Positions 9,518 to 43,629 of a DNA stretch of 64,000 nt are shown here, one piece after another. Under the pieces are notes generated by a model, which saw only the letters and a program-made list of their open reading frames with translations, made no database searches and was not told the DNA's origin. Every line of letters starts with the position of its first letter. Positions within the stretch are counted from its first letter, which is position 1. This DNA comes from Patescibacteria group bacterium (lineage in GTDB: Bacteria; Patescibacteriota; Patescibacteriia; XYB2-FULL-38-15). Location of the stretch: assembly GCA_041650995.1 (NCBI GenBank), contig JBAZJZ010000002.1, positions 13,344-77,343 on the forward strand, written 5' to 3'. Position numbers and translations under genes: made by a program.

Positions 9518-9582
9518 GTTAAATTGAAAGTGCCGGGTAATTTATCCGGCACTTTCATCCCGAGCAATATCGAGGGATCCCT

Positions 9583-9657
9583 GGCCACGTAGCCAAGTGG
9601 TAAGGCAGGAGTCTGCAAAACTCCTATGCGCCGGTTCAATTCCGGCCGTGGCCTCCA
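9583..9657 (+). tRNA. tRNA-Ala (UGC), CCA encoded
   Basis: ggccacg/cgtggcc acceptor with G3-U70, anticodon loop ctgcaaa, T-loop ttcaatt. Confidence 0.85.
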
Positions 9658-9686
9658 GGTTTTATTGGAATTTTTAGTTTTGATTC

Positions 9687-10601
9687 ATGGCAAATAAATT
9701 TATTATTATTGACGGCAATGCGATTCTTCATCGCGCCTGGCATGCCTTGCCGCCGCTCACAACGCCAACTGGCGAAATGGTAAATGCCGCGTATGGCTTC
9801 ACTTTGATTTTGATGAAGGCGTTGAAAGATATCCAACCAAAATATGCGGCCGTAACTTTTGACAGGAAAGAAAAAACCTTCCGCCACGAAATGTATACTG
9901 AATATAAAGCTACCCGCGTGAAGCAACCAGATGAACTTTATGCTCAAATTCCAATTATTAAAAAAATTGTCACGGCGTTTGGGATGCCGATTTATGAGAA
10001 AGAACGTTTTGAGGCCGATGACGTGATTGCCACGATTTGTAAAAATAAAGAAGTTAACAAACCTGACGTGGAGTCAATTGTCGTTACGGGCGATATGGAC
10101 ACATTGCAGTTGGTAGATGACAATACAAAAGTTTACGCTTTGCGCAAAGGTATCACGGATACGGTTATTTATGATGAAGGTGCGGTTTTGAAAAAATATG
10201 AGCTTAGACCAGATCAATTAAATGATTTTAAGGCGATGCGCGGTGACCCGTCGGATAATATTCCCGGCGCGAAGGGTATTGGCGATGTCGGCGCGGCCGC
10301 GCTCATCAAAGAATTTGGGTCAATTGAGAAAATGTATGAAGCTATAGAAAAAAATGATACTCGCTTGGAAAAGTTCAAACCGCGATTAATAGAAATTTTG
10401 AAAAAAGAAAAAGATAATGTTTTTTTAGGTAAAAAGTTGGTGACACTAGTTTCAGATGCGCCGGTAGATTTTTATCTTGGAGACTGCAAAATAAAAATTG
10501 ATCCGGGCTCAGTGGCGAAAATTTTTAAAGATTTGGGTTTTATGTCACTTCTTAAAAAAGTTGATGAATTAGCCGGTGGCGCGCAGAGTAATTTATTATG
10601 A
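9687..10601 (+). CDS. 5'-3' exonuclease (stand-alone DNA pol I N-terminal domain)
   Basis: MANKFIIIDGNAILHRAWHALPP start and FEN/53EXO motifs (GDMDTLQLVDD, GIGDVGAAALIKEFGS H3TH). Confidence 0.85.
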   Translation: MANKFIIIDGNAILHRAWHALPPLTTPTGEMVNAAYGFTLILMKALKDIQPKYAAVTFDRKEKTFRHEMYTEYKATRVKQPDELYAQIPIIKKIVTAFGMPIYEKERFEADDVIATICKNKEVNKPDVESIVVTGDMDTLQLVDDNTKVYALRKGITDTVIYDEGAVLKKYELRPDQLNDFKAMRGDPSDNIPGAKGIGDVGAAALIKEFGSIEKMYEAIEKNDTRLEKFKPRLIEILKKEKDNVFLGKKLVTLVSDAPVDFYLGDCKIKIDPGSVAKIFKDLGFMSLLKKVDELAGGAQSNLL

Positions 10602-14270: not shown

Positions 14271-15317
14271 CTACTCAATTTTAGGTTTTTCAATTAGAAG
14301 CGGCTCTATCTGACTTTCGCCACCAGCAATTTTAATAACATCTTTATCAATTTTTTTTAATTCCGTAGAAGCGGTATTATAAGCGCCAACTGTAGTGCCA
14401 AGATGATTGCCGAGTTTTATAAAATATTCATCGTAGGCATTTAAATGTTTTCCTAAATCCCCTACTCTTTTGATAATATCTTTTACCGATTCGCTGATTT
14501 TCATTCGACGCAGACCTTCGGCGAAGAGTTGGAGGTAAACATGAAAGGTGGTTGGCGAAACAATAATCACGTGCTTTTCGCGATTAGCATATTCAACGAG
14601 ATCGCGAGTGTTAATTTTTACCGCGCCAATTTGATTTACTAGAAGATCATAATAAATTGCTTCCGCAGGGATAAACATAAACGCGTATTCAACAGTCCCT
14701 TCTTCTGTCCGTACGTATTTAGCGGTTTCGTCAATTCGGTTTTTGAGATCTTGCTTGAAAAGTTTTTCTAATTTTTCTCGCTCATTTGGATCGCGTTCTT
14801 CAACAATTCTATTATAGTTTTCCAAGCTGAATTTTGAATCAATTGGGATAATCTGTTCGCCTAAAAAAATGACAGCATCAACTATTTCTCCGTCTTTAAA
14901 TTTATGCTGCATTTGATACGCGGTTGGTGGAAGAACATTTTTTAAAACTGTTTCTAAATAATATTCGCCGAGAATTCCTCGCTGTTTTGGATTTTTTAAA
15001 ATATCCTCAAGGCTCTGAAGTTGTCCGGCAAAATTCACGATTTGCTTTCCAGTCTCATCAAGTTTAGTTAATTTTTCCGTGACATCTTTAATAATTTTAC
15101 TGCTCTCGCCAAATTGGGTTTGAACGGCCCGGTGACTTTCAGTAAGTTTAGCGTCTACTGCCTTGGTTAGTTCACTGATTTGATTTTGGAGAAGGATGAG
15201 AGATTGGTCATTGCGACTCCCTTCTTTTAATTCTTTAATTTTTCGATTAAGGAAATAAAAAATAGTTGCCAGGGCGGCAATAATTATGGCGGCAGCGATA
15301 AATAAATAAATCTCCAT
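14271..15317 (-). CDS. rmuC: DNA recombination protein RmuC
   Basis: N-terminal TM, long coiled coil, C-terminal RmuC nuclease-like region (FIPAEAIYYDLL...LGNHLGTTVGAYN). Confidence 0.8.
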   Translation of the reverse strand: MEIYLFIAAAIIIAALATIFYFLNRKIKELKEGSRNDQSLILLQNQISELTKAVDAKLTESHRAVQTQFGESSKIIKDVTEKLTKLDETGKQIVNFAGQLQSLEDILKNPKQRGILGEYYLETVLKNVLPPTAYQMQHKFKDGEIVDAVIFLGEQIIPIDSKFSLENYNRIVEERDPNEREKLEKLFKQDLKNRIDETAKYVRTEEGTVEYAFMFIPAEAIYYDLLVNQIGAVKINTRDLVEYANREKHVIIVSPTTFHVYLQLFAEGLRRMKISESVKDIIKRVGDLGKHLNAYDEYFIKLGNHLGTTVGAYNTASTELKKIDKDVIKIAGGESQIEPLLIEKPKIE

Positions 15318-15534
15318 TTTGACTTTTCGTTAATTCTTTATTAAGATTATATCAGAAAATAAGCATAGTCGTAAAGAGCTTATTTTAAGAATAAGAAAAT
15401 ATTTGTAGTAATTATTATAAGATTAAGGTGAAAAAGAGGAAAAAGCGAGCATTTATATTTTACGACACTTGATTTCTTTTTATTTTAGGGAAAAATAAGA
15501 AAATATTTCTATATCTATAAAAATACTATCCCCT

Positions 15535-15606
15535 GTCCCCGTAGCTCAACGGATAGAGCAAACCCGTCCTAAGGGTGAGATGGGGGTTCAATTCCCTCCG
15601 GGGGCA
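15535..15606 (+). tRNA. tRNA-Arg (CCU), tentative (A27-G43 mismatch, G32)
   Basis: gtccccg/cgggggc acceptor, D-arm gctcaacggatagagc, loop gtcctaa, T-arm gggggttcaattccctc. Confidence 0.55.
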
Positions 15607-15643
15607 TGTAAAACGTCTTTAAGGCAAGTGTTTTTTAATTTTT

Positions 15644-15690
15644 GTGCACCTATAGTAAAGCGGTATTACGGCTGCACGGCAGCTTATCTA
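15644..15690 (+). pseudogene. Degenerate tRNA 5'-fragment (acceptor plus D-arm like tRNA-Ala at 15769)
   Basis: gtgcacctatagtaaagcggtattacggc resembles 5' part of downstream tRNA (ctcatagtaaagtggtattacgcc) but anticodon arm cannot fold. Confidence 0.4.
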
Positions 15691-15768
15691 AAATTAAATT
15701 TATAAAAAATAGGCATTTATTTTAAATATTTAACGTTTTTTTAAAAAATCAATGATTTGGGTGGACCT

Positions 15769-15839
15769 GGGCTCATAGTAAAGTGGTATTACGCCGCATT
15801 CGCATTGCGGAGGCGGGAGTTCGATTCTCCCTGGGTCCA
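15769..15839 (+). tRNA. tRNA-Ala (CGC)
   Basis: gggctca/tgggtcc acceptor with G3-U70 and A73 (Ala identity), D-arm gtaa-agtggta-ttac, anticodon stem ccgca/tgcgg with loop ttcgcat, T-arm gggagttcgattctccc. Confidence 0.6.
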
Positions 15840-15860
15840 CCTAAATTATTGATACTGGCT

Positions 15861-15895
15861 ATTGCGGAGGCGGGAGTTCGATTCTCCCTGGGGTA
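15861..15895 (+). repeat. Direct repeat: duplicated 3' half of tRNA-Ala(CGC) (attgcggaggcgggagttcgattctccctggg)
   Basis: 33/34 nt identical to 15804-15836, 22 nt downstream of the intact tRNA. Confidence 0.7.
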
Positions 15896-16133
15896 AATCT
15901 CCTTGGAGCGATTTAGGGAAAATAGCCAAAGATTTCTGAAATCTTAACAAAAGCAGAAGAAGGGGATTAGCTTGGAAGAAGAAAATGTTTTTTGGAGAGA
16001 TGAAATGGAATTTCCTGATGGTAGAAACGAACAAGTAGATATAAAGATTTGGAAAAGAAAATTTAGTTCAGGGCAAGCTTCAATAGATTTATGGATCTGG
16101 CCAAAAGCAAAAAAATATTATCAAAAAAACGAA

Positions 16134-16162
16134 AAAACGCCCTAAAATAAAGGGCGTTTTTT
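16134..16162 (+). terminator. Rho-independent terminator
   Basis: aaacgccctaaaataaagggcgtttttt. Confidence 0.55.
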
Positions 16163-16206
16163 AAAAATGTTTCACGCTAAACATTTTGTTGCCCGGTGAA
16201 ACACTT

Positions 16207-16555
16207 TTAGAGAAACCCATATAACCAGTTTTCTTCTCGCTGTTCAAATTTTTTCTTCCAATCTTCAAATTGAATTTTTTTCATGCCAAAAAGACGGCCT
16301 TCAAGCAATGGGATAATTTTTTCATTTATCGTTTTTCTTTTTCTAACCAAAAGTAGGGCATAATGACGATTTTGATGATTATAGATATGTATTGTTTTCC
16401 TTTAAATTTAATCCATCACGAACCATTTTAACCAGATCTTTATCCGAGGCGTGCATTTTTAATTGGAAAACGGGAACTTCTTGATTATTTTGTTTTACCC
16501 ACATAAAAGAACCCTCTCCAACAATTAGACCAGCAATAAAATCGAGTGAAAGCAT
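16207..16555 (-). pseudogene. Frameshifted LAGLIDADG homing endonuclease gene
   Basis: Hand translation of minus strand: MLSLDFIAGLIVGEGSFMWVKQNNQEVPVFQLKMHASDKDLVKMVRDGLNLKENNTYL then stop. The +1 frame continues ...RHYALLLVRKRKTINEKIIPLLEGRLFGMKKIQFEDWKKKFEQ. DFIAGLIVGEGSF is a classic LAGLIDADG dodecapeptide. Confidence 0.55.
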
Positions 16556-16807
16556 AATTCATTAAAAATTAATTTATTATGTTTTTTAATTTTATCATAA
16601 AATGAGTGACGGAAATTAATTTTTGTGGATAACTGCTGAGAAATTTATTGGTGTAGGAGGAAATAGACGAGTATTGGTGTTGTAAGGATGGGGTGATCCC
16701 CGAGGGACGCAGTAGTTAGTATGATTAAAAAGTAAATAATAATCTTAACATTGTGTATATATTAATTTACACATATCCCTTGAACTAAAATTTGTTCACA
16801 TTTGTAA

Positions 16808-16836
16808 TTGACTTTTTTAAAAAATAATGGTATAAT
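16808..16836 (+). promoter_or_regulatory. Consensus sigma70-like promoter TTGACT-17-TATAAT, about 240 nt upstream of surface-protein cluster
   Basis: ttgacttttttaaaaaataatggtataat. Confidence 0.5.
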
Positions 16837-17075
16837 AATAATGTAAATAAGATAATTAATTTAGAAAAGCAACCCGGTTCTTTTATCTATATAATTATCT
16901 AAACAATTTAATATTAAGGGAAGTAGAGATTAAGGTTTCTTTCCCAATTAGTACCTAAGTACCCTTGCCCCACGCCAATTTGTGTGGGAGGTGTACTTTG
17001 TGCCCTCAGAAGGTACTTGTACCCTTGGAACAGAAATTTTAGTCTTAGGCTTTACCTTGAAATAGGTGATCGACG

Positions 17076-17759
17076 TTGTTTATGAAAAAAATTTTCATAA
17101 AAGTCATTATAATCACTCTTGTTTTTATTTCTCTTGTTGCTTTTTGGAGAGCGCCTCTTAGCTTGGCATTAATGAATTCTGAAAGTTACATTAACTGGAT
17201 GGATTCTCTAAATTTTGGCGGAGAAGAAACTTCCTTTTCGGCAAGTTATAAAATTCAAGATACCTTGGGGGAAATTGGCACAGGAAAAATAACAAGTACT
17301 AGCTACGCTGGCTTAATAGGGTTTCGTCAGGCAGAAGCAGACCCCAAAATGACTTTTGATATTTCTAAAACTTCAATTGATTTTGGTACGTTGACCACAA
17401 ACGCCGTTTCTTCAGATAGCATCACTATCACAACTACAACTAATGCTGTGAATGGATATGTCACAACAATTCATGAGGAAGAAAATTTAAAAACTGTAGG
17501 CGGGGCGGATATTGATGATGTGGCAGACGGAACAGTTTCTCCCGGCGCAGAAGAATATGGGGTTAGAACGTCTGGCGCGGCGGGACAGATGAACGGAGCA
17601 GACACGGCTATTACAATTTCTCCACAAGCAGTCGCATTATATAGCAGTTGGGTAAATGGAAGCACAGTGACAGTTACTTTTAAAGCAGCAATTTCCTCGA
17701 TGACAGCGGCCGGAGCCTATGCCCATTCAGTCACATTGATTTCCACAGGAAGATTTTAA
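17076..17759 (+). CDS. Secreted protein, family A (paralogue of 17816 C-terminal region)
   Basis: Signal peptide; shares ...TTTNAVNGY(V/T)TT... and C-terminal ...ISTG(R/T)F with next ORF. Confidence 0.65.
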   Translation: MFMKKIFIKVIIITLVFISLVAFWRAPLSLALMNSESYINWMDSLNFGGEETSFSASYKIQDTLGEIGTGKITSTSYAGLIGFRQAEADPKMTFDISKTSIDFGTLTTNAVSSDSITITTTTNAVNGYVTTIHEEENLKTVGGADIDDVADGTVSPGAEEYGVRTSGAAGQMNGADTAITISPQAVALYSSWVNGSTVTVTFKAAISSMTAAGAYAHSVTLISTGRF

Positions 17760-17815
17760 AAAATTATTTATAAAAAAGTTATTTATTAACGATCTGTTCA
17801 GCAGATCCTAAAAAT

Positions 17816-18901
17816 ATGAAGAACAGAAGTGTCCATAAAAAAATTGTTCAAATCACCGCGGTGAGTATGATTTTGTTCGCCGCTTTTCCGCTTTTGTCAG
17901 TGCATGCCGCGGCTATGACGAGTATCACGGACACACTGACTCGTCTAAAAGCCAGTACGGCTGCAAATCATACTATTAAGTTTGTTCAACTTACTGGCGT
18001 AGGGGCTGGACAAAAAATAAAAGTCACTTTTCCCACGGGGTTTGCCATGGGTTCAGTAGATTACACGGATGTGGATTTGGCTGTGGGTGACAGTAACAAT
18101 TGCTCCACGGCATCCTTTACGGACAAAACTTTAGCAGCGGCAGCTTCGGGGGCAACTTGGGGCGCGACTGTTGGCGGGCAAGTTCTCACTTTTGTTTCTG
18201 ACTCGGATACAATTACTGCCGATAGATGCGTTTTGATTGAAGTGGGAACCAACGCGACGGCAGGAGAAGCCGGCGATCAACAAGTGACAAACTCCACGGC
18301 CGGGAACGATAAGCTAATGACTTTAGCCACAACTACGGCAGCCGACGCAGAGATTGATGCAGGCTCTTTGGCTCTCTCAATAATTTCAGATGATCAAGTA
18401 ACAGTAACAGCCACAGTTAACGCGACTTTTACTTTTGAAATTTCTTCCAACTCTTGCGCCCTGGGGACTCTTTCAACCGCAAATGTCCAGACTTGCAGCG
18501 TAACTTTGACTACAAGCACTAATGCTGTTGGCGGCTACACCACCACAGTAGTAGGAACAGCTACGGGCGCTGAATTGATTCACTCTAATTTAACAGATAA
18601 TATTGATAATGCCACCGGCATAGAGGTTAACGCTGGTTCAGAAGAATTTGGAATTGGCACGAGTGATACGGGTGTTGACATAGTTACTGAATCAGATTGT
18701 GCTGGAGCTGACGGCACTATCGTGGCAGACGCGGAATCAATTGATACAATCGGAGACAATACGCCAGCTTCGATGGCAACGGCTTCTGGTCCGGTTTCCT
18801 CTGACGCGACAACAGCATGTTTTGCCGCGTCTATCGCGGCAACAACCGTTGCCGGTTCTTATACGGCCACAACGACATTTATTTCCACCGGAACCTTTTA
18901 A
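17816..18901 (+). CDS. Secreted protein, family A/B (N-terminal domain paralogous to 20141 ORF)
   Basis: Signal peptide; N-terminal DTLTRLKASTAANHTIKF...VTFPTGF matches DTLSRLKISTAANHDIRF...ITFPAGF of ORF 20141; Thr/Ala-rich. Confidence 0.65.
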   Translation: MKNRSVHKKIVQITAVSMILFAAFPLLSVHAAAMTSITDTLTRLKASTAANHTIKFVQLTGVGAGQKIKVTFPTGFAMGSVDYTDVDLAVGDSNNCSTASFTDKTLAAAASGATWGATVGGQVLTFVSDSDTITADRCVLIEVGTNATAGEAGDQQVTNSTAGNDKLMTLATTTAADAEIDAGSLALSIISDDQVTVTATVNATFTFEISSNSCALGTLSTANVQTCSVTLTTSTNAVGGYTTTVVGTATGAELIHSNLTDNIDNATGIEVNAGSEEFGIGTSDTGVDIVTESDCAGADGTIVADAESIDTIGDNTPASMATASGPVSSDATTACFAASIAATTVAGSYTATTTFISTGTF

Positions 18902-18970
18902 CTTTAAATTATTTTTTAAAATAACAAACAAGTCGCGATAATTTTATTCTCGACCTGTTAGGGGGAAGAT

Positions 18971-19975
18971 ATGAAAAAAATTTTTTTCGTGAGTTCGCTT
19001 GCCGCTTTAATTTTTGCGTTAGCGCCGATTTCCGTATCTGCCATAACGGTTTCCCCGCCAATCATTGAATTTGACGCGCGGCCAGGAGACACGATTGTTG
19101 ACACCATTAAATTGTATAACGAAACAAGGGAAGCGCAGACTTTGACTGGCGCAGTACAAAGTTTTAAGGCGTTGAATGAAACTGGAGCGCCAGCCTTTCT
19201 TCCTCCTGAAGAATCGACTGATTTGGCGACTTGGCTAAAGCTTGATGAATCTACGGTTTCCTTGGCGGCCGATGAAAGAAAAGATATTTTATTTAGCATC
19301 GCCGTTCCCCTCAATGCGGAACCTGGTGGCCACTACGCCGGAATTCTTTGGACACCGGGCGGCTCGACCACGCTTCAAGGAAGCGGCGTTGGCGTTACCA
19401 TTAAAACCGGAACATTAATTTTAGTCAGAGTCGCGGGGGACATTACTGAGACGGGCAGATTAGTCAGTTTCACGGCAGACAGATCCTCTTATAATTATTT
19501 GCCCGCGAATTTTTCTTTTCGTTTTGAAAATTTGGGCAATGTTCACTTAAAACCAGTCGGCGCGATTGAAATTAGTAATTTATTGGGGAGAAAAGTTACA
19601 TCTCTTCCGGTGAACGGAGATTTATCAAATGTCCTTCCAGAGTCAATTAGAAAATTTGACGCGACTTGGCAGAAAACAGAAGTTCCTCGCGGCGCGTCCG
19701 AGTGGCAAAAAGAAAGAGAAAATTTTGCTTGGGGTAAATATACAGCAACTCTCATTTTGGATTACGGGATAGACGGACAAGAAACCACGGCATCGCTTGT
19801 CTTTTGGGTTTTTCCATGGCGCGTAACACTTTTCTATCTGGCCATAGCTCTGATCATTATTCTTCTCGTTGTTTTAGGCATCAAAAGTTATAATAAGTGG
19901 CTTATCAAAAAATATAGCCAGCAAAATAAACCAGAAGATAATCAGAAAATTGAAGATCAAAAAATTGAAGAGTAA
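18971..19975 (+). CDS. Membrane-anchored surface protein (signal peptide plus C-terminal TM anchor; DUF916-like architecture)
   Basis: N-terminal signal, C-terminal hydrophobic helix LFYLAIALIIILLVVLGI followed by charged tail. Confidence 0.55.
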   Translation: MKKIFFVSSLAALIFALAPISVSAITVSPPIIEFDARPGDTIVDTIKLYNETREAQTLTGAVQSFKALNETGAPAFLPPEESTDLATWLKLDESTVSLAADERKDILFSIAVPLNAEPGGHYAGILWTPGGSTTLQGSGVGVTIKTGTLILVRVAGDITETGRLVSFTADRSSYNYLPANFSFRFENLGNVHLKPVGAIEISNLLGRKVTSLPVNGDLSNVLPESIRKFDATWQKTEVPRGASEWQKERENFAWGKYTATLILDYGIDGQETTASLVFWVFPWRVTLFYLAIALIIILLVVLGIKSYNKWLIKKYSQQNKPEDNQKIEDQKIEE

Positions 19976-20140
19976 TTCAATTATTTCATTGATGTCCTCT
20001 GATTTTTCGGAGGACAAAACGAGTTCGTTGAATTTTCAAAAAACAAAAAACAAAAATCAAAAGTCAAAATTTGAATTTTAAAGTTTCACTTTTAATTTTT
20101 TGACGTTTGTCTTTTGAGTTTTGAATCTAGAAGGAGGCGC

Positions 20141-22405
20141 ATGAAAAAAATAATCAAAAGAAAAGGCGTCGTAATTTTAATCGCGGTTTTTGTTTTAACT
20201 AGCCTTTTTACCATATTTAATAATCAATCGGTCGCCAGCCAGCTTTCTTCAGTGAGCGATACGTTGAGCCGGTTAAAAATTAGCACAGCCGCGAATCATG
20301 ATATTAGATTCGCGACTCCGACCGGCGTTGACGCCCCAACAGACACAGTCACGATTACTTTTCCGGCAGGTTTTAATCTTGGGACGATTGCTTTCGGCGA
20401 CATGGATTTGAATGTTGACGCGGCTTGCGACGGTGTTTATGAAATTTCAAAAACTTTAGCGGCCGCTCCGGGGCTAAGTCCAATTTGGGGGGCAGTGGCT
20501 GCAGGCCAGATAGTTACTTTAACTGCGCCAACTGATGCCGCAGCTGGAGAAATTGTTGCTGCATCTTGCGTCCAAATTTTGATTGGTACAAACGCGACAG
20601 GAGGTGTTAGCCAAATTACAAATCCAGCGAGTATTGGAAGTCACGTAGTTCATATTGGCGGAACTTTTGGGGATTCAAGCAATATTGCCGTGGCCATTGT
20701 TACAAATGACCAGATCGGCATTGGCGCGAATGTTAACGCGCCGACCGGAGGAGGCGCGCCGGGTACTGGCGCTACGCCGCCGATTGTTTCAAATATTAGA
20801 GTTGTAAATATTTTACAAACTTCAGCCTCTGTTCTTTGGGATACTAACGAGCCCGCTACTTCAAGAGTGAATTATGGCTTGTCTGACAGTTATGGATCTA
20901 CGGAAACCGGCGATGGCGGCGGGTTGGTAACGAGCCATAGAGTTGATTTATCAGGATTAACCGCAGATTCAATTTATCATTTCCAAATAGTGACGGCCGA
21001 CGCGGAAGGCGCCACGACTACCACGGCCGATGACATTTTCCAAACTCTTTCAGGTTCAGACATAACTGCTCCCATAATTTCTGACATTCAAGTTATAAAT
21101 ATCACAGAGACTGGAGCGACTATAATTTGGACAACAGACGAACCGGCAAATTCAAAGGTAGAATATGGTTTAACCGACTCATATGAATTAGGCGAAGTAA
21201 GCTCCACCGATTTTGCTACTTCTCATAGTTTGGTTATTTCCGGGCTTTTAGGGAATACCACTTATCATTTTCGCGTGACTTCGGCCGATTCCTCCGGCAA
21301 CGCGGCGGTTTCCGGCGATGATACTTTTACGACTTTAGCCCCACCCGACTCGGATCCTCCCATTATTTCAAATATCAGAGTTATCAATATTACTGAAACG
21401 TCGGCAACTGTGACCTGGGAAACGAATGAACGGTCTACTTCTCGCGTGAGATATGGGCTAACCGGAGCGTATACCACGGGAAATATTTTTTCTGCCGATT
21501 TAGTAACAACACACAGCATCAATTTAATTTCTCTGACTCGCAGCACGCTTTATCATTTTGAAGTTTCTTCATCTGACGGGTCCGGAAACACGGCAACTTC
21601 GGGTGATCAGATTTTTACCACTTTGCCGGACGCCGTCCCTCCAGCTAATGTTACGGATTTCACGGCGGTCCCAACCGCGGATTTAACAATTCTTTTGAAC
21701 TGGGTTAATCCAACTGACCCAGACTTTGGCGGAGTTTTGATAAAACGAAGTTTTACAACTTATCCAACAAATCCGGCTGAGGGCGAAATAGTCTTTGATG
21801 GGGTGGCTACTTCATTTGAAGATACTGGTATTACTTCCGCAAATTATAATCAGCCAATTTATTATACAGCTTTTGCTTATGACGCGGCCGGAAATTTTGC
21901 TTCAGGAGCAATGGCAGAAGCAACAATTTCAGTTGAGATTACTTTGGACATTAAAGCTTGGCCGGAAAAAAGATGGCCGCGGAGCGGGAATTGGTCAACA
22001 ATAGGTTTGGTTGATTTAAGGGAACCAATAACCGGAACTATCGCAGATGAAGGATCGGTTACAACTTCTTCTCTTGGGCAGGGCGCGGTTCAGTTTACTT
22101 CAATTTCCGGCGGAAATTATGACATAGGTTTTAAAGGTCTATCTCATTTACGAAAAATTTTGCGCGACATACCGCTTTCTAACGGCGTAAATTCAGTGGA
22201 CTTTACCTTAGGAAATATTTTTTATCTTTTAGCCGGAGATGTTCATCGTTCATCTGATAATATGGTAAACGCCCTGGATATTTCCACCCTTTTAGGTGCG
22301 CTATCCACGGGAAACGAAGTTACTGATTTAAATCGTGATACTGGCGTCAACTCTTTGGACATTAATATTTTGTTGGCGAACCTGATGAGAGTAGGGGACA
22401 ATTAA
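20141..22405 (+). CDS. Cell-surface protein: family-B N-domain, 4x fibronectin-III-like repeats, C-terminal dockerin-like domain
   Basis: RBS aaggagg before ATG 20141; four repeats (PIVSNIRVVNI...YHFQIVTAD etc.); C-terminal DLNRDTGVNSLDINILLANL and DNMVNALDISTLLGAL dockerin-type repeat pair. Confidence 0.7.
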   Translation: MKKIIKRKGVVILIAVFVLTSLFTIFNNQSVASQLSSVSDTLSRLKISTAANHDIRFATPTGVDAPTDTVTITFPAGFNLGTIAFGDMDLNVDAACDGVYEISKTLAAAPGLSPIWGAVAAGQIVTLTAPTDAAAGEIVAASCVQILIGTNATGGVSQITNPASIGSHVVHIGGTFGDSSNIAVAIVTNDQIGIGANVNAPTGGGAPGTGATPPIVSNIRVVNILQTSASVLWDTNEPATSRVNYGLSDSYGSTETGDGGGLVTSHRVDLSGLTADSIYHFQIVTADAEGATTTTADDIFQTLSGSDITAPIISDIQVINITETGATIIWTTDEPANSKVEYGLTDSYELGEVSSTDFATSHSLVISGLLGNTTYHFRVTSADSSGNAAVSGDDTFTTLAPPDSDPPIISNIRVINITETSATVTWETNERSTSRVRYGLTGAYTTGNIFSADLVTTHSINLISLTRSTLYHFEVSSSDGSGNTATSGDQIFTTLPDAVPPANVTDFTAVPTADLTILLNWVNPTDPDFGGVLIKRSFTTYPTNPAEGEIVFDGVATSFEDTGITSANYNQPIYYTAFAYDAAGNFASGAMAEATISVEITLDIKAWPEKRWPRSGNWSTIGLVDLREPITGTIADEGSVTTSSLGQGAVQFTSISGGNYDIGFKGLSHLRKILRDIPLSNGVNSVDFTLGNIFYLLAGDVHRSSDNMVNALDISTLLGALSTGNEVTDLNRDTGVNSLDINILLANLMRVGDN

Positions 22406-22424
22406 TTAAGTATCTATATATTGT

Positions 22425-25052
22425 ATGAGGAGGATAATTTGTACAATCGCCGCAATCGGATTTAGTTTTCTTCTCGGCCATTTTGCGCTCGCCGCTCGTT
22501 TTGAATTGTCTCCGGCTTCCACGGGGTTTATTATTGGTTGTGATTCGGCGGTGAATATTGAAATAGATACCGCAGGAGAAACCTCTGACGCCGCTAATAT
22601 TTTAATTCGTTATAATCCCGCGCAAATTGAAATCCGCGACGCTAATCCATCAGCAAGCGGAATCCAAATAAGAAATGGCAACGCTTACGAAGCCTATGCT
22701 GATAATATTGTTTTGCCGGGGGAAGGGTTGATCCGCCTGACGGGATTTTCTTTTTTAGAACAACTCACGGGCAGAGCCACTTTTGGCACAATTATTTTTC
22801 GTCCGAGAGCAGGTGCGGTTGGCACTGCGTTGACCGTAGAATATGTTGCCGGCAGCACGATTGATAGTAACATTGCCGAATATTTGACAAGTGACGATCT
22901 TTTGACCGGCGTGACAAATGGTTCTTACACCTTTAGCGGCGGTTCTTGCGTGGCTGATGTTACGCCACCGAGCGTGTTAAACCCCGATCCAACGCCGGAC
23001 GAACGCGACGTACCCCTTGATACAAATGTTATTTTTGATATTCGTGACAGTCAGTCAGGAGTTGATTTGGATAGTTTAACGGTAAACGTGGATGGTATAA
23101 TTTACACGCGAGGAGGAATAAATAGATTTTCTTTTGTCGGGACTCCGGAGTCATACGCCGTGGCGATAAATCCGGACACAGATTTTACTCCGGGTGTGCC
23201 AGTACTTGTGGAAATAAACGCGGCAGATTTATCCGGAAATAGGATGACGCCTTATCGCTATATTTTTAATCAGCCAGCTGCCCCACCGCCCGAGCCGCCG
23301 TCTTGCGAAGCGCTTGGGTGTATTTCACCAGCCACTTGCACGGCCGAGCCTGTTTTGCCAGAAGAAATTACTGAAGAGCCGACCGTTCCGGAGTCACAGA
23401 GGTTAAATCTTGGAGATTTTTCATTTTATATTGCCGACGGAACCCTTCAAATTTATCCAAATAGAAATGATGAGCTTACGACTTTACAAAATTCACCACT
23501 TATAATTTCTATTTCAGAAAATAAATTTCCTCGAGAGGTGGAAAGAATAGTTTTAACCTTAAATAGTTTTTCTTACCTTTTGGGTTATAATGAAATTTCC
23601 GACGCACGGCAAACGACAATCCAAACGCCCTCTACTGCGGGAAAATTATCAAGCGTGATTTTAGTTGATTATAAAGATGGCTCTCATGACAGAATTCTTG
23701 GAACGCTTTCGCTTTTGTCGCGCGGTTTTATTTGGCAGGGAACAGCAGCAAATAAATTGTCCGGCGCCAAGGTGACGCTTTATGAGAGCACGGCGGGTTC
23801 CAGAGTTTGGGATGCCACTCCTTATCATCAAATCAATCCACAAATAACGGACGCTTCTGGTCAGTTCGCTTTCCTGGTTCCGCCGGGGCGATATTATTTA
23901 CTTGTCCAAAAGGACGACTACCGTGATCAAACCACATCGGTTTTTGAAATAGCAAACAACGTTGTTAATCAAAGTGTAGAAATTCTTATAAAACCGCCGT
24001 CGCTTTCCGAAGTTTGGAACCCCGAAGGGCCGATTACTGAAAATATCCAGAATGTTGCGAAAAATTTAGGAGAAAAAACAATTTACGCCTCTGAGATTGT
24101 CCGCAAAGATGTTTTGGACAATCCTGAAGTAGAAAAAAATAATGAAAGTATTGCCGTGCCGACCGTAGCCGCGGTCGCGATCGTAAGTTATGGAACAGCA
24201 ATTTCTCTTGGCTCGCTTTTACCATTTTTACAATTGATTTTTACCCAGCCGCTTCTCCTTCTTTTCCCAAAACGAAGAAAAGGTTGGGGCATTGTTTATC
24301 ATTCTTTATCAAAAATGCCGGTTGATCTGGCAATAGTTCGTTTGTATGAAAAAGTGACAAACCGCCTGGTCCAAACTCGCGTCACGGATAAGGAAGGCCG
24401 TTTTGCTTTCTTTGTCCAGCCGGGTCAATATTTTATCAAGGTTGTTAAACCAAATTTTGCTTTCCCGTCCAATTTTGTAAAAGATATAAAAGAAGATGTT
24501 AAATATTTAGATATTTATCACGGCGAAGAAATTACGGTGACGGAAAAAAATACGCTCGTGACGCCGAACATTCCGATTGATCCGGTAGAGGGCACAGCTA
24601 AACCTGATAAAAAAATTGTTCTCGCGCATTTTGGAAGAAAGGCACAAAACATCATCGCGCCGCTCGGCATTCTTGCTGCTGCTATTTCGGTTTTAATTTC
24701 GCCGCAACTTTGGATGGTCGCGGTTCTGGCTGGCCACTGCCTTCTGTACGCACTTTTTAGACGTTTGGCCAGAAGCAAAAAACCAAAGAGCTGGGGCATT
24801 GTTTACGAAAATCAAACAAAGGCGCCGGTGGGGCTCACAGTGGCAAGAATTTTTGAAACGGAATACAATAAGCTTTTGGAAACTCAAGTTACGGACGGTC
24901 GCGGGCGATATTCGTTCTTGGTTGGCAATAATGCTTATTATGTGACATTCAGCAAGCCTGGCTTTGCGCCGAAACGGACTGAGACGATTGATCTTCGCGG
25001 GAGAAAAGAAGGCGCGGCCGTAGGGTTGGATGTGGGGTTGGATAAAGTATAG
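22425..25052 (+). CDS. Large surface protein: N-terminal cohesin-like beta-sandwich, three carboxypeptidase-regulatory-like (CarboxypepD_reg) domains, two internal TM segments
   Basis: Signal peptide; repeated WGIVY...VTD(K/G)(E/R)GR(F/Y)(A/S)F...PG.Y modules at about 23760, 24290, 24790. Confidence 0.55.
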   Translation: MRRIICTIAAIGFSFLLGHFALAARFELSPASTGFIIGCDSAVNIEIDTAGETSDAANILIRYNPAQIEIRDANPSASGIQIRNGNAYEAYADNIVLPGEGLIRLTGFSFLEQLTGRATFGTIIFRPRAGAVGTALTVEYVAGSTIDSNIAEYLTSDDLLTGVTNGSYTFSGGSCVADVTPPSVLNPDPTPDERDVPLDTNVIFDIRDSQSGVDLDSLTVNVDGIIYTRGGINRFSFVGTPESYAVAINPDTDFTPGVPVLVEINAADLSGNRMTPYRYIFNQPAAPPPEPPSCEALGCISPATCTAEPVLPEEITEEPTVPESQRLNLGDFSFYIADGTLQIYPNRNDELTTLQNSPLIISISENKFPREVERIVLTLNSFSYLLGYNEISDARQTTIQTPSTAGKLSSVILVDYKDGSHDRILGTLSLLSRGFIWQGTAANKLSGAKVTLYESTAGSRVWDATPYHQINPQITDASGQFAFLVPPGRYYLLVQKDDYRDQTTSVFEIANNVVNQSVEILIKPPSLSEVWNPEGPITENIQNVAKNLGEKTIYASEIVRKDVLDNPEVEKNNESIAVPTVAAVAIVSYGTAISLGSLLPFLQLIFTQPLLLLFPKRRKGWGIVYHSLSKMPVDLAIVRLYEKVTNRLVQTRVTDKEGRFAFFVQPGQYFIKVVKPNFAFPSNFVKDIKEDVKYLDIYHGEEITVTEKNTLVTPNIPIDPVEGTAKPDKKIVLAHFGRKAQNIIAPLGILAAAISVLISPQLWMVAVLAGHCLLYALFRRLARSKKPKSWGIVYENQTKAPVGLTVARIFETEYNKLLETQVTDGRGRYSFLVGNNAYYVTFSKPGFAPKRTETIDLRGRKEGAAVGLDVGLDKV

Positions 25053-43327: not shown

Positions 43328-43500
43328 AATTGGTTGACCACGTACAAAGTAAAGGTGAATCAATATGTGTTCAGTAAACAATGAAGGTAAATATAGTTTT
43401 TGCTCTGCCGGGCGCAAAGAAACCTAAACTTTGTATCGTAGTTGACAAAATTATAAATTGTTGTAACCTTAAAAAATCTCCCGCCTGGATTTATGGTTTT

Positions 43501-43574
43501 GGGCCTATAGTATAGTAGTAAAACGCCTCCATGGCATGGAGGAGTCGAGGGTGCGATTCCCTCTAGGTCCACCA
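43501..43574 (+). tRNA. tRNA-Ala (GGC), CCA encoded, embedded in 10-bp inverted repeat atctcccgcc/ggcgggagat
   Basis: gggccta/taggtcc acceptor (G3-U70), anticodon stem cctcc/ggagg with loop atggcat, T-arm gagggtgcgattccctc; upstream ttgacaaaattataaattgt promoter-like box. Confidence 0.8.
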
Positions 43575-43629
43575 AAAATTCCGGCGGGAGATTTTAGTTG
43601 ATTTTTATTTTAAATAAAAAATAAAGAGT

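Follow-up and report, generated by a model that had tools for sequence, protein, structure and literature searches.

What event leaves a tRNA gene flanked on both sides by pieces of itself? The question is raised by a largely non-coding gap in the window, by which we mean the whole 64,000-nt stretch of contig JBAZJZ010000002.1 from a Patescibacteria group bacterium. The gap separates an RmuC gene (14271–15317, minus strand; Pfam RmuC, E = 3e-54) from a surface-protein operon, and holds an intact tRNA-Ala(CGC) gene with a 5′ fragment upstream and a 3′ fragment downstream, followed by a broken LAGLIDADG homing endonuclease gene. An earlier analysis of the letters alone (the sequence-only reading) had seen in the 3′ copy a scar of site-specific integration or excision, and in the tRNA the possible boundary of an island at 17–43 kb. 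The comparison with related loci shows instead that the intact gene sits inside the two halves of an older tRNA-Ala gene. We consider it likely that the gap as a whole is a decaying intergenic region that records two independent selfish-DNA events, one at the tRNA and one at the endonuclease gene, and then passes into the control region of a conserved operon. In this respect the earlier idea of mobile-DNA activity at a tRNA was supported, and the gap may be called a graveyard of such activity.

About 150 related loci, coded L002 and so on, were gathered for comparison with the window by RmuC homology, by exact look-up of endonuclease homologues and by a metagenome scan for the tRNA-Ala 3′ half. 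The survey of tRNA genes covered 1.4 Mb of Patescibacteria DNA with 243 tRNA genes. The closest RmuC relatives come from metagenome-assembled genomes labelled Falkowbacteria, Parcubacteria or Patescibacteria (the best is 95% identical), and an ENA contig matches the window identically over the gap region. tRNA genes were called with ARAGORN and Rfam (tRNA cutoff 29 bits), and the LAGLIDADG domain was tested with Pfam PF00961 (LAGLIDADG_1, curated cutoff 23.1 bits).

On the plus strand downstream of RmuC, an intact tRNA-Arg(CCT) gene (15534–15607; ARAGORN, 55 bits in Rfam), an allele common to most of the clade, is followed by a spacer (15608–15645) which is homologous to that of the uninterrupted loci L121, L132 and L005 and ends in the ancestral tRNA-Ala leader TTTTTGT. 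The degenerate 5′ fragment (15646–15670) corresponds to tRNA positions 1–25. Its D-arm matches the live tRNA-Ala at 18 of 19 positions, and its acceptor strand has decayed to GCACCTA. A GC hairpin, GGCTGCACGGCAGCT (15670–15684), stands at the left junction of the insertion, where the anticodon arm would be, and leads into an AT-rich spacer (15685–15747) kept in all interrupted alleles and possibly serving as promoter of the inner tRNA. The complete tRNA-Ala(CGC) gene (15769–15841; ARAGORN, 65.4 bits in Rfam) has the acceptor stem GGGCTCA/TGGGTCC and, as read from the sequence, carries a G3:U70 pair. It is bracketed by a 20-bp inverted repeat overlooked in the sequence-only reading, whose left arm ATCAATGATTTGGGTGGACC (15748–15767) and right arm GGTCCACC (15834–15853, overlapping the tRNA 3′ end) are 90% complementary; the resulting leader-trailer helix folds with z = -5.6. 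The left arm is conserved, with G-U-tolerant changes, in L002, L004, L006, L053, L128 and L106. The 3′ fragment (15861–15893) starts at tRNA position 36 and has lost its end by deletion. It contains an exact 32-nt copy (15861–15892) of tRNA positions 36–67 (15804–15835), for which we estimate a chance probability of ~1e-13 in 1.8 kb. Both tRNA genes, the 5′ fragment and the direct repeat had been noticed before and were recovered here, with the correction that the repeat measures 32 nt and begins 19 nt, not 22 nt, after the end of the tRNA.

Two kinds of allele were found at this locus. Plain alleles (L003, L005, L007, L008, L121, L132, L134 and L143) carry a single tRNA-Ala gene without flanking repeat or helix. 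Interrupted alleles (the window, L002, L004, L053 and L128, and also L006, which lacks the 5′ part) show the order 5′ fragment (positions 1–25), hairpin, AT-rich spacer of ~65 nt, left arm, tRNA-Ala, right arm, 8 nt and 3′ fragment from position 36. Upstream of the 5′ fragment stands the leader known from plain alleles (TTTTGTG/TTTTGCG), and downstream of the 3′ fragment their trailer, which in L002 reads TTTGGA..., just as it does in L134 and L008. In L128, the 3′ fragment is followed by the start of a 119-amino-acid (aa) open reading frame (ORF), as in the plain L121. The outer halves of L002 and L004 pair as an acceptor stem of their own, GGGCCTA/TAGGTCC, next to the inner GGGCTCA/TGGGTCC, and this outer stem is identical to that of the intact gene of L134, the sister of L002 on the RmuC tree. 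The outgroups have plain tRNA-Ala genes, and plain and interrupted alleles are interspersed among sister taxa on the same tree.

Since the fragments are flanked by the ancestral leader and trailer, since their acceptor stem is of the L134 type and since the outgroups are plain, they are the two halves of an ancestral tRNA-Ala(CGC) gene, split by an insertion of ~190 nt (15671–15860) bearing a complete tRNA-Ala. The inner gene, presumably functional, would now provide the tRNA-Ala, and the outer halves are mutating and shrinking relics. The outer gene of the window lacks positions 26–35, and the deletion at the end of the 3′ relic extends into the next gene, of which the first ~65 codons are gone. 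The 3′ relic shares the bases of the live copy genome by genome (CCCTGGG in the window and L128, CCCTAGG elsewhere). This allele-specific sharing suggests that the 32-nt identity was produced by gene conversion with the live copy 57 nt away.

The classical explanation would be that a phage or island entered tRNA-Ala, regenerated the gene and displaced its 3′ end, the repeat marking the left edge of the 17–43 kb island. The geometry is right, since a direct repeat of a tRNA 3′ part starting in the anticodon loop is typical of attachment (att) sites (10.1101/2022.07.05.498093), and some tRNAs at related loci have only 3′ fragments, 150–240 nt downstream. However, the spacer here is only 19 nt long and the 3′ copy is accompanied by a matching 5′ fragment with the ancestral leader, which integrase scars do not leave. 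No integrase was found among the ORFs of the gap, as remarked previously, and none was recognised by eye near the inspected nested loci, with two candidates checked in Pfam. Viral contigs scanned for the tRNA-Ala 3′ half and the left helix arm gave no match, so that a phage attP source is unsupported. Nor does the tRNA delimit an island. RmuC is followed by tRNA-Arg, tRNA-Ala, a non-coding stretch of 350 nt and the first surface-protein genes in L002, L003, L004, L005 and L007, and the first five operon proteins (17076–25052) with the 350-nt upstream region are collinear at 62–86% aa identity in L002, L003, L005 and L007. The operon is syntenic in all close relatives, a conservation that the sequence-only reading had itself named as grounds for refutation, and its first five proteins are still recognisable, at ~35% identity, in L059, L064 and L026. 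As the operon is the same with and without tRNA fragments (L003, L005 and L007 being plain), the tRNA cannot be the junction of an accessory block. We regard an integrase scar as very improbable.

The nested arrangement is not peculiar to the window and returns for Ala, Arg and Lys tRNAs in unrelated Patescibacteria. In the 1.4 Mb surveyed, 36 of the 243 tRNAs are accompanied within 500 nt by partial copies on the same strand that match exactly over at least 14 nt, where by our estimate far less than one would be expected by chance. Other tRNA-Ala families (L081, L093, L112, L138, L082 and L087) show the same order of parts with different helix sequences and different break points (left at 9, 18 or 25, right at 27 or 36), some of them with two or three nested layers. 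Multi-layer nesting was observed in L087, L093, L112 and L009, and hairpins comparable to that at the left junction of the window occur in other nested families. Compensatory pairs in the acceptor and T stems distinguish the inner copy from the outer one in L093.

Clean splits were found for two other tRNAs. In L081, a tRNA-Lys gene is divided in the anticodon (1–35, insert, 36–74). In L002, a tRNA-Arg(CCT) gene (span 9560–9800) is divided in the D arm, its parts 1–23 and 24–73 being separated by a 109-nt cassette made of a 19-nt leader, a new tRNA-Arg and an 18-nt trailer. The cassette has hairpin arms and its tRNA-Arg is divergent (D stem GTTC/GAAC); leader and trailer of the old gene match those of the intact tRNA-Arg gene of the window. 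The same cassette family, with diverged tRNA-Arg alleles as its cargo, occupies the same D-arm site in L102, L010 and L125; the window and L134, to which L002 is most closely related, lack it. The tRNA-Arg(CCT) locus of L009 shows at least three dead layers.

The leader-trailer helices themselves appear to be maintained. The helix of the L081 family measures 18 bp; pairing is seen in 72 of 72 cells, and both sides have changed in 7 of the 18 pairs. One-sided changes are exclusively G-U on the sense strand, which points to a helix acting in the transcript or in sense single-stranded DNA, not as terminal repeats recognised by a protein. Such helices flank ~10% of the tested tRNAs. Among them is the other tRNA-Ala of the window (GGC, 43501–43574), at the tip of a ~25-bp helix, AAAATCTCCCGCC...GGCGGGAGATTTT (span 43473–43596, z = -5.9), which resembles a terminator hairpin with the tRNA as its loop; no fragments of tRNA-Ala(GGC) were seen.

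On the basis of these comparisons we tentatively propose that Patescibacteria carry replacement tRNA cassettes of ~110–230 nt, so far undescribed, in which a tRNA sits at the tip of a hairpin and which insert into the loops of cognate tRNA genes, repeatedly and across lineages. Two features of the proposed type were found: a helix preserved through compensatory changes, and a complete tRNA within its own halves, which bear the ancestral leader and trailer. The targets would include the D arm of tRNA-Arg(CCT), between positions 23 and 24, and the anticodon arms of tRNA-Ala and tRNA-Lys. At each, the cassette would take over the function and leave the old halves as nested shells, the window tRNA-Ala being one example. 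This would amount to a selfish or repair-driven turnover of tRNA genes, distinct from integrase att duplications, introns and split tRNAs. A literature search for nested or hairpin-flanked tRNA genes among bacteria of the candidate phyla radiation (CPR) found nothing relevant, and the gene-within-gene architecture does not seem to have been described.

Could errors of local replication have given the same picture, with nothing mobile involved? One agent would be tandem duplication with subsequent decay, another a switch of template at the quasi-palindromic acceptor stem. Template switching at quasi-palindromes gives inverted copies of the kind seen in the left helix arm, which holds the reverse complement of the tRNA 3′ end and trailer. 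Behind the 3′ fragment of L006, L053, L112 and L043 the same trailer appears a second time, as after a tandem duplication. Against this, the fragments of L002, L004 and L128 keep the ancestral leader and trailer, plain alleles offer no source for the left ~100 nt of the insert, compensatory substitutions separate inner from outer copies, the helix has been kept by 7 compensatory pairs, and the same tRNA-Arg cassette is found at the same site in different resident alleles. A simple tandem duplication was rejected for the 5′ side, where the spacer has no homologue upstream of the fragment. Taken together, these observations make local errors an improbable source of the arrangement.

The halves could also be imagined as working exons, the outer parts and the helix making up a working tRNA, either split or interrupted by an intron, or else some other structured RNA, and an intron-like rod setting free the inner tRNA. 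The complete outer exons of the L081 tRNA-Lys and the L002 tRNA-Arg, with inserts at the anticodon loop or D arm, would fit, as would a helix that juxtaposes the halves and whose G-U-tolerant covariation indicates a sense transcript. Yet the outer gene of the window lacks positions 26–35 and has a mutated acceptor, the halves of its relatives bear hairpin insertions and truncations, and no Rfam intron or other family was matched in the region. Bacteria are not known to possess the splicing endonuclease of archaea. A group I intron in a bacterial tRNA was rejected as well, for want of an Rfam match and of positions 26–35 in the outer gene. We hold a functional split tRNA to be highly unlikely.

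To return to the insertion, the ancestral tRNA-Ala was split between about position 25 and position 36 by DNA bringing the hairpin, the AT-rich spacer and a complete tRNA-Ala with its 20-bp leader-trailer helix. In our working model, an insertion into a single-copy tRNA gene would be viable only with a working copy on board; the cargo would always be the cognate tRNA because only such insertions survive. As to entry, we favour, at somewhat less than even odds, the passage of an already interrupted allele from one related genome to another, through homologous recombination or a homing-like repair in which the old halves act as homology arms. Break points in cloverleaf loops leave room, as a speculation, for a single-strand or RNA-mediated entry.

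Several points weigh against a mobile cassette. No enzyme moving tRNA cassettes was recognised and none is consistently nearby, as judged by inspection of the ORFs by eye and Pfam searches of two candidates only; the cassette itself is too small to encode a recombinase. Likewise, the ORF lists of L081, L087, L093, L112, L128, L041 and L043 showed housekeeping genes and, by eye, no recombinase; the two candidates checked in Pfam, Cys-rich ORFs considered as HNH nucleases, had no match. Since the inner tRNA-Ala and the old gene do not differ at the insertion site, a simple model of replacement by an immune copy fails for Ala. No further copies of the cassette are present in the 64-kb window. Finally, deletion between direct repeats could interconvert plain and interrupted alleles, and their patchy distribution, although it fits spread by recombination, is no proof of horizontal movement. 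The other observation that bears on movement is the tRNA-Arg cassette at one and the same site in L002, L102, L010 and L125.

The dead halves show a further type of change. Those of L006, L053, L082, L138, L002, L009, L041 and L125 have gained short GC hairpins (for example CCCGCC...GGCGGG or TCCGCC...GGCGGA) in the D loop, at 37/38 or in the T loop. Those in the D loop sit after GGATAG or GGTA, and one hairpin module, TCGGCGACCCGCCGAAGAGGCGGG, is found in two unrelated genomes behind slightly different tetranucleotides (TCAT/TCGT). They do not form a repeat family of the window, where CCCGCC...GGCGGG matches are ordinary terminators only. Other oddities were noted at further tRNA loci. With respect to the adjacent zinc-ribbon gene, the tRNA-Lys(TTT) unit and its 3′ fragment point the opposite way in L081 as compared with L111 and L093, and the inner tRNA-Lys of L081 has a G at position 33, where U is near universal. 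Behind the 3′ ends of tRNA-Arg, tRNA-Phe and tRNA-Gly in L041 and L043 comes a pseudo-copy of the tRNA concerned, inverted and interrupted by a hairpin, and a direct fragment running from the T arm to the 3′ end lies 166–243 nt downstream, partly in repeats of ~200 nt. This style of debris is unlike the nested type.

The second event concerns the single-domain LAGLIDADG gene (16207–16555, minus strand). As the sequence-only reading had it, the gene is frameshifted. The raw minus-strand ORFs, 16379–16555 and 16207–16350, cover complementary halves of PF00961, each below threshold, and the frameshift-corrected protein of 116 aa scores 40.2 bits, compared with 34.1 bits for the intact orthologue of L053. 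Alignment with intact orthologues places one extra base at ~16393–16401, a +1 frameshift relative to L058, L133, L057 and L053 by which the endonuclease is dead in this genome. The motif IAGLIVGEGSF aligns to the GEGSF/AEGSF of solved enzymes and keeps the acidic catalytic residue. The protein aligns to either half of two-domain meganucleases and matches single domains of solved LAGLIDADG enzymes. A single domain of ~120 aa leads one to expect a homodimer and a palindromic site, as for I-CreI, which acts as a homodimer on a palindrome. The CPR enzyme I-ShaI does likewise (PMC11270868).

Earlier, the gene had been associated with introns or inteins, which does not apply here, since it stands alone in intergenic DNA, with a terminator on one side, a promoter region on the other and no host gene. 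An Rfam search of 14800–17600 at E ≤ 1 returned the two tRNAs and chance-level terminator look-alikes, and no intron, riboswitch or small RNA family.

The gene is intact in L053, L133 and L057, broken in the window, in L058 (W to stop) and in L102 (frameshift), and absent from L002–L008 and many others. Homologues with 50–61% identity all occupy the same slot, from the RmuC/tRNA genes to the first operon gene; a 176-aa relative is located elsewhere. Sister pairs differ in the presence of the gene (L007/L058, L002/window and L006/L053). For L007 and L058 the flanks are ~98–100% identical while 0.5–0.8 kb with the terminator, palindromes and endonuclease cannot be aligned, and exact insertion junctions are not definable across this unalignable stretch. 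The endonuclease DNA of the window is 89% identical to that of L058, whereas the flanks are 71–79% identical. This greater likeness of the gene than of its surroundings points to transfer of the endonuclease cassette as a block.

The same distribution bears on the tRNA fragments. Breaks made by the LAGLIDADG enzyme, or by an earlier homing endonuclease, followed by sloppy repair, might have duplicated parts of the tRNA. A precedent is SegB, encoded among the tRNA genes of T-even phages, which cuts there and drives segmental amplification through recombination (PMC13096335). The endonuclease gene of the window lies 320 nt from the tRNA fragments, L101 and L126 have a GIY-YIG gene directly next to the palindrome described below, and HNH-like small ORFs (no Pfam domain) are found past the fragment-rich tRNA clusters of L041 and L043. 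But interrupted alleles are found whether or not the endonuclease is present, and vice versa, so that a tie between the interrupted allele and the gene was rejected. Moreover, the nested tRNAs of L081, L087, L093 and L112 have housekeeping neighbours only, and the insertion consists of unique sequence with a covarying helix and not of a tandem amplification. Endonuclease-driven rearrangement seems to us quite improbable as the origin of the nested tRNA.

What would the enzyme have cut? In close-clade genomes without the endonuclease, two perfect palindromes (GTTTCACGTGAAAC or its symmetric variant GTTTCGCGCGAAAC) lie just past the terminator, extending to 24–32 bp with covarying outer arms. 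Fifteen endonuclease-free loci carry the 14-mer GTTTCACGTGAAAC in 2–3 copies and four more (L006, L078, L106 and L128) only GTTTCGCGCGAAAC. Overall, genomes without the gene have one to three copies of one form or the other. Neither sequence occurs elsewhere in the 1.4 Mb, and of 11 distinct loci with the endonuclease, 0 contain the perfect 14-mer. All that genomes with the gene have is a mutated copy and a half-site abutting its stop codon; in the window these are a degenerate palindrome, TGTTTCACGCTAAACA, 8 nt and the half-site GTGAAACA (16163–16210), which we interpret as a disrupted form of the paired perfect palindromes of endonuclease-free relatives. Because it is absent with the endonuclease, present without it and confined to this locus, the 14–24-bp palindrome GTTTCACGTGAAAC is probably the endonuclease target.

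These results argue, somewhat better than evenly, for intronless homing of a free-standing and presumably homodimeric endonuclease that takes the palindrome as its target. In this process the endonuclease would spread while carrying along a disrupted, immune version of the site. In distant genomes that have the endonuclease, palindrome variants with an additional base at the centre overlie the promoter of the gene itself, and this would allow binding without cutting. In L101 and L126, a small GIY-YIG nuclease ORF ~250–480 nt downstream of tRNA-Ala ends inside a perfect GTTTCACGTGAAAC and appears to represent a second endonuclease family at the same hotspot.

The main rival to homing is a domesticated DNA-binding regulator, with the palindromes as its operators, perhaps also for the surface operon, and presence or absence of the gene reflecting dispensability. 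It would account for the position of the palindrome variant exactly between the -10 box and the start codon in L144, L064 and L147, for a single locus kept down to ~50% identity, and for palindromes that are conserved where the gene is absent. It sits badly with the acidic residue kept in the catalytic motif (GLIxGEGSF), with the independent pseudogenes of the window, L058 and L102, with a cassette more alike between lineages than its flanks, and with the perfect palindrome and the gene never being found together, which is unexpected for an operator and its repressor. We judge it unlikely. Nevertheless, homing faces objections of its own. The link between endonuclease and palindrome is correlative, and the close-clade endonuclease-bearing alleles share descent. 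Palindromes conserved with covarying outer arms in endonuclease-free genomes must also have a host role, for example as terminator or operator. The variants over the endonuclease promoter fit a DNA-binding regulator as well as a nuclease. As for the death of the window gene, the frameshift lies in a short A/T run and its sole confirmation is the identical contig, which may come from the same sample.

The remainder of the gap consists of gene remnants and control signals. The small terminated ORF of the sequence-only reading (15972–16145, plus strand) encodes residues 68–119 of a conserved hypothetical protein of ~119 aa, and degraded homology with in-frame stops is found further upstream. It is the C-terminal third of a gene whose remnant spans 15894–16145 (tblastn against the intact L128 gene). 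A bidirectional intrinsic terminator with a 12-bp stem (16132–16162) follows and shows compensatory stem changes in relatives. A NUDIX-family ORF of ~170 aa lies between tRNA-Arg and tRNA-Ala in L003, L007, L058, L134 and L143 and is absent from the window, L002, L004, L005 and L121, a third presence/absence polymorphism at this locus.

Beyond the endonuclease gene, 16624–17081 holds the promoter, operators and structured leader of the conserved surface-protein operon. The right edge of the variable cassette is marked by a DnaA-box-like motif, TGTGGATAAC (16624–16633, plus strand), present in all relatives; a perfect form, TGTGGATAA, is conserved clade-wide, with two boxes in L144, L146 and L059, and a variable G/purine-rich tract (16640–16720) comes next. 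A replication origin, for which this motif, AT-rich DNA and palindromes might have spoken, was rejected, as cumulative GC skew rises smoothly and the gene orientation is not divergent. Operator-like inverted repeats (16752–16773 and 16781–16798) precede a sigma-70 promoter with 11 of 12 matches (16808–16836) and a 5′ leader of ~240 nt (16837–17081), all on the plus strand. The leader has a 19-bp closing helix and covarying inner hairpins. It is conserved in the window, L002–L007, L053, L058, L128 and L133, has no Rfam match, and is a candidate cis-regulatory RNA. Within the first surface-protein gene (orthologue of 17076–17759), identity between L007 and L058 falls from ~99% to ~75% about 130 nt into the gene, a sign that the surface protein may be a recombination mosaic or subject to diversifying exchange.

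It is routine to take partial tRNA copies for att scars, and in the window this reading is wrong. With ~15% of the sampled Patescibacteria tRNAs having partial copies and no element, rules that find islands from tRNA repeats misfire in this phylum. If the cassettes are truly mobile, an essential RNA gene of which there is one copy only can be invaded and replaced and still keep its function, and dated layers of tRNA gene turnover would be preserved in genomes thought static and minimal. The LAGLIDADG gene offers a free-standing homing endonuclease of a bacterial chromosome with a testable palindromic candidate target of 14–24 bp and natural, presumably immune alleles, and the conserved promoter and leader give a way into how an uncultured lineage controls a large surface-protein operon.

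How do the two elements compare with known systems? The LAGLIDADG part is an ordinary but neat addition to a known type of endonuclease. Like the single-domain enzymes I-CreI and I-ShaI, the latter encoded in a CPR rRNA insertion (PMC11270868), the window protein has a LAGLIDADG_1 domain of ~120 aa with the acidic residue kept. It shares the host phylum with I-ShaI as well as a cycle of gain, decay and loss, and its palindromic candidate target suits a homodimer. It differs from both in being shorter and in standing free beside tRNA genes, outside any rRNA insertion, intron or intein; its activity and target are predicted ones. With the free-standing endonucleases of T4-like phages such as SegB (PMC2988022, PMC13096335) it has in common a position between genes beside tRNAs, and, with their intronless homing, an endonuclease-bearing allele with an altered, presumably immune site and the exchange of cassette and flanks as a block. 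Unlike SegB, it is a LAGLIDADG and not a GIY-YIG protein, resides in a cellular chromosome, and its putative target is an intergenic palindrome and not a gene.

The proposed tRNA cassette recalls three systems. REPINs and other hairpin miniature elements (PMC3116915) are likewise short GC-rich hairpins inserted repeatedly, and a 36-nt insert at 37/38 of the old tRNA-Arg of L002 resembles a cassette helix without its tRNA; in contrast to REPINs, there are no further copies in the 64-kb window and the cargo is a tRNA gene. The tRNA fragments left by integrative elements (10.1101/2022.07.05.498093) similarly place a same-strand partial 3′ copy beside an intact gene, whereas the window has neither element nor integrase, a spacer of 19 nt, a 5′ fragment in addition, and an intact gene bracketed by a helix inside the old one. 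The disrupted tRNAs of archaea include intron-containing, split and permuted genes, and archaeal tRNA introns behave as mobile DNA (PMC3218864, PMC10714607). As in these, the interruption falls in the anticodon or D region and a complementary leader and trailer could join the halves. The window locus, however, is bacterial, its insert holds a whole second copy of the tRNA, and its halves decay, as expected of relics and not of exons.

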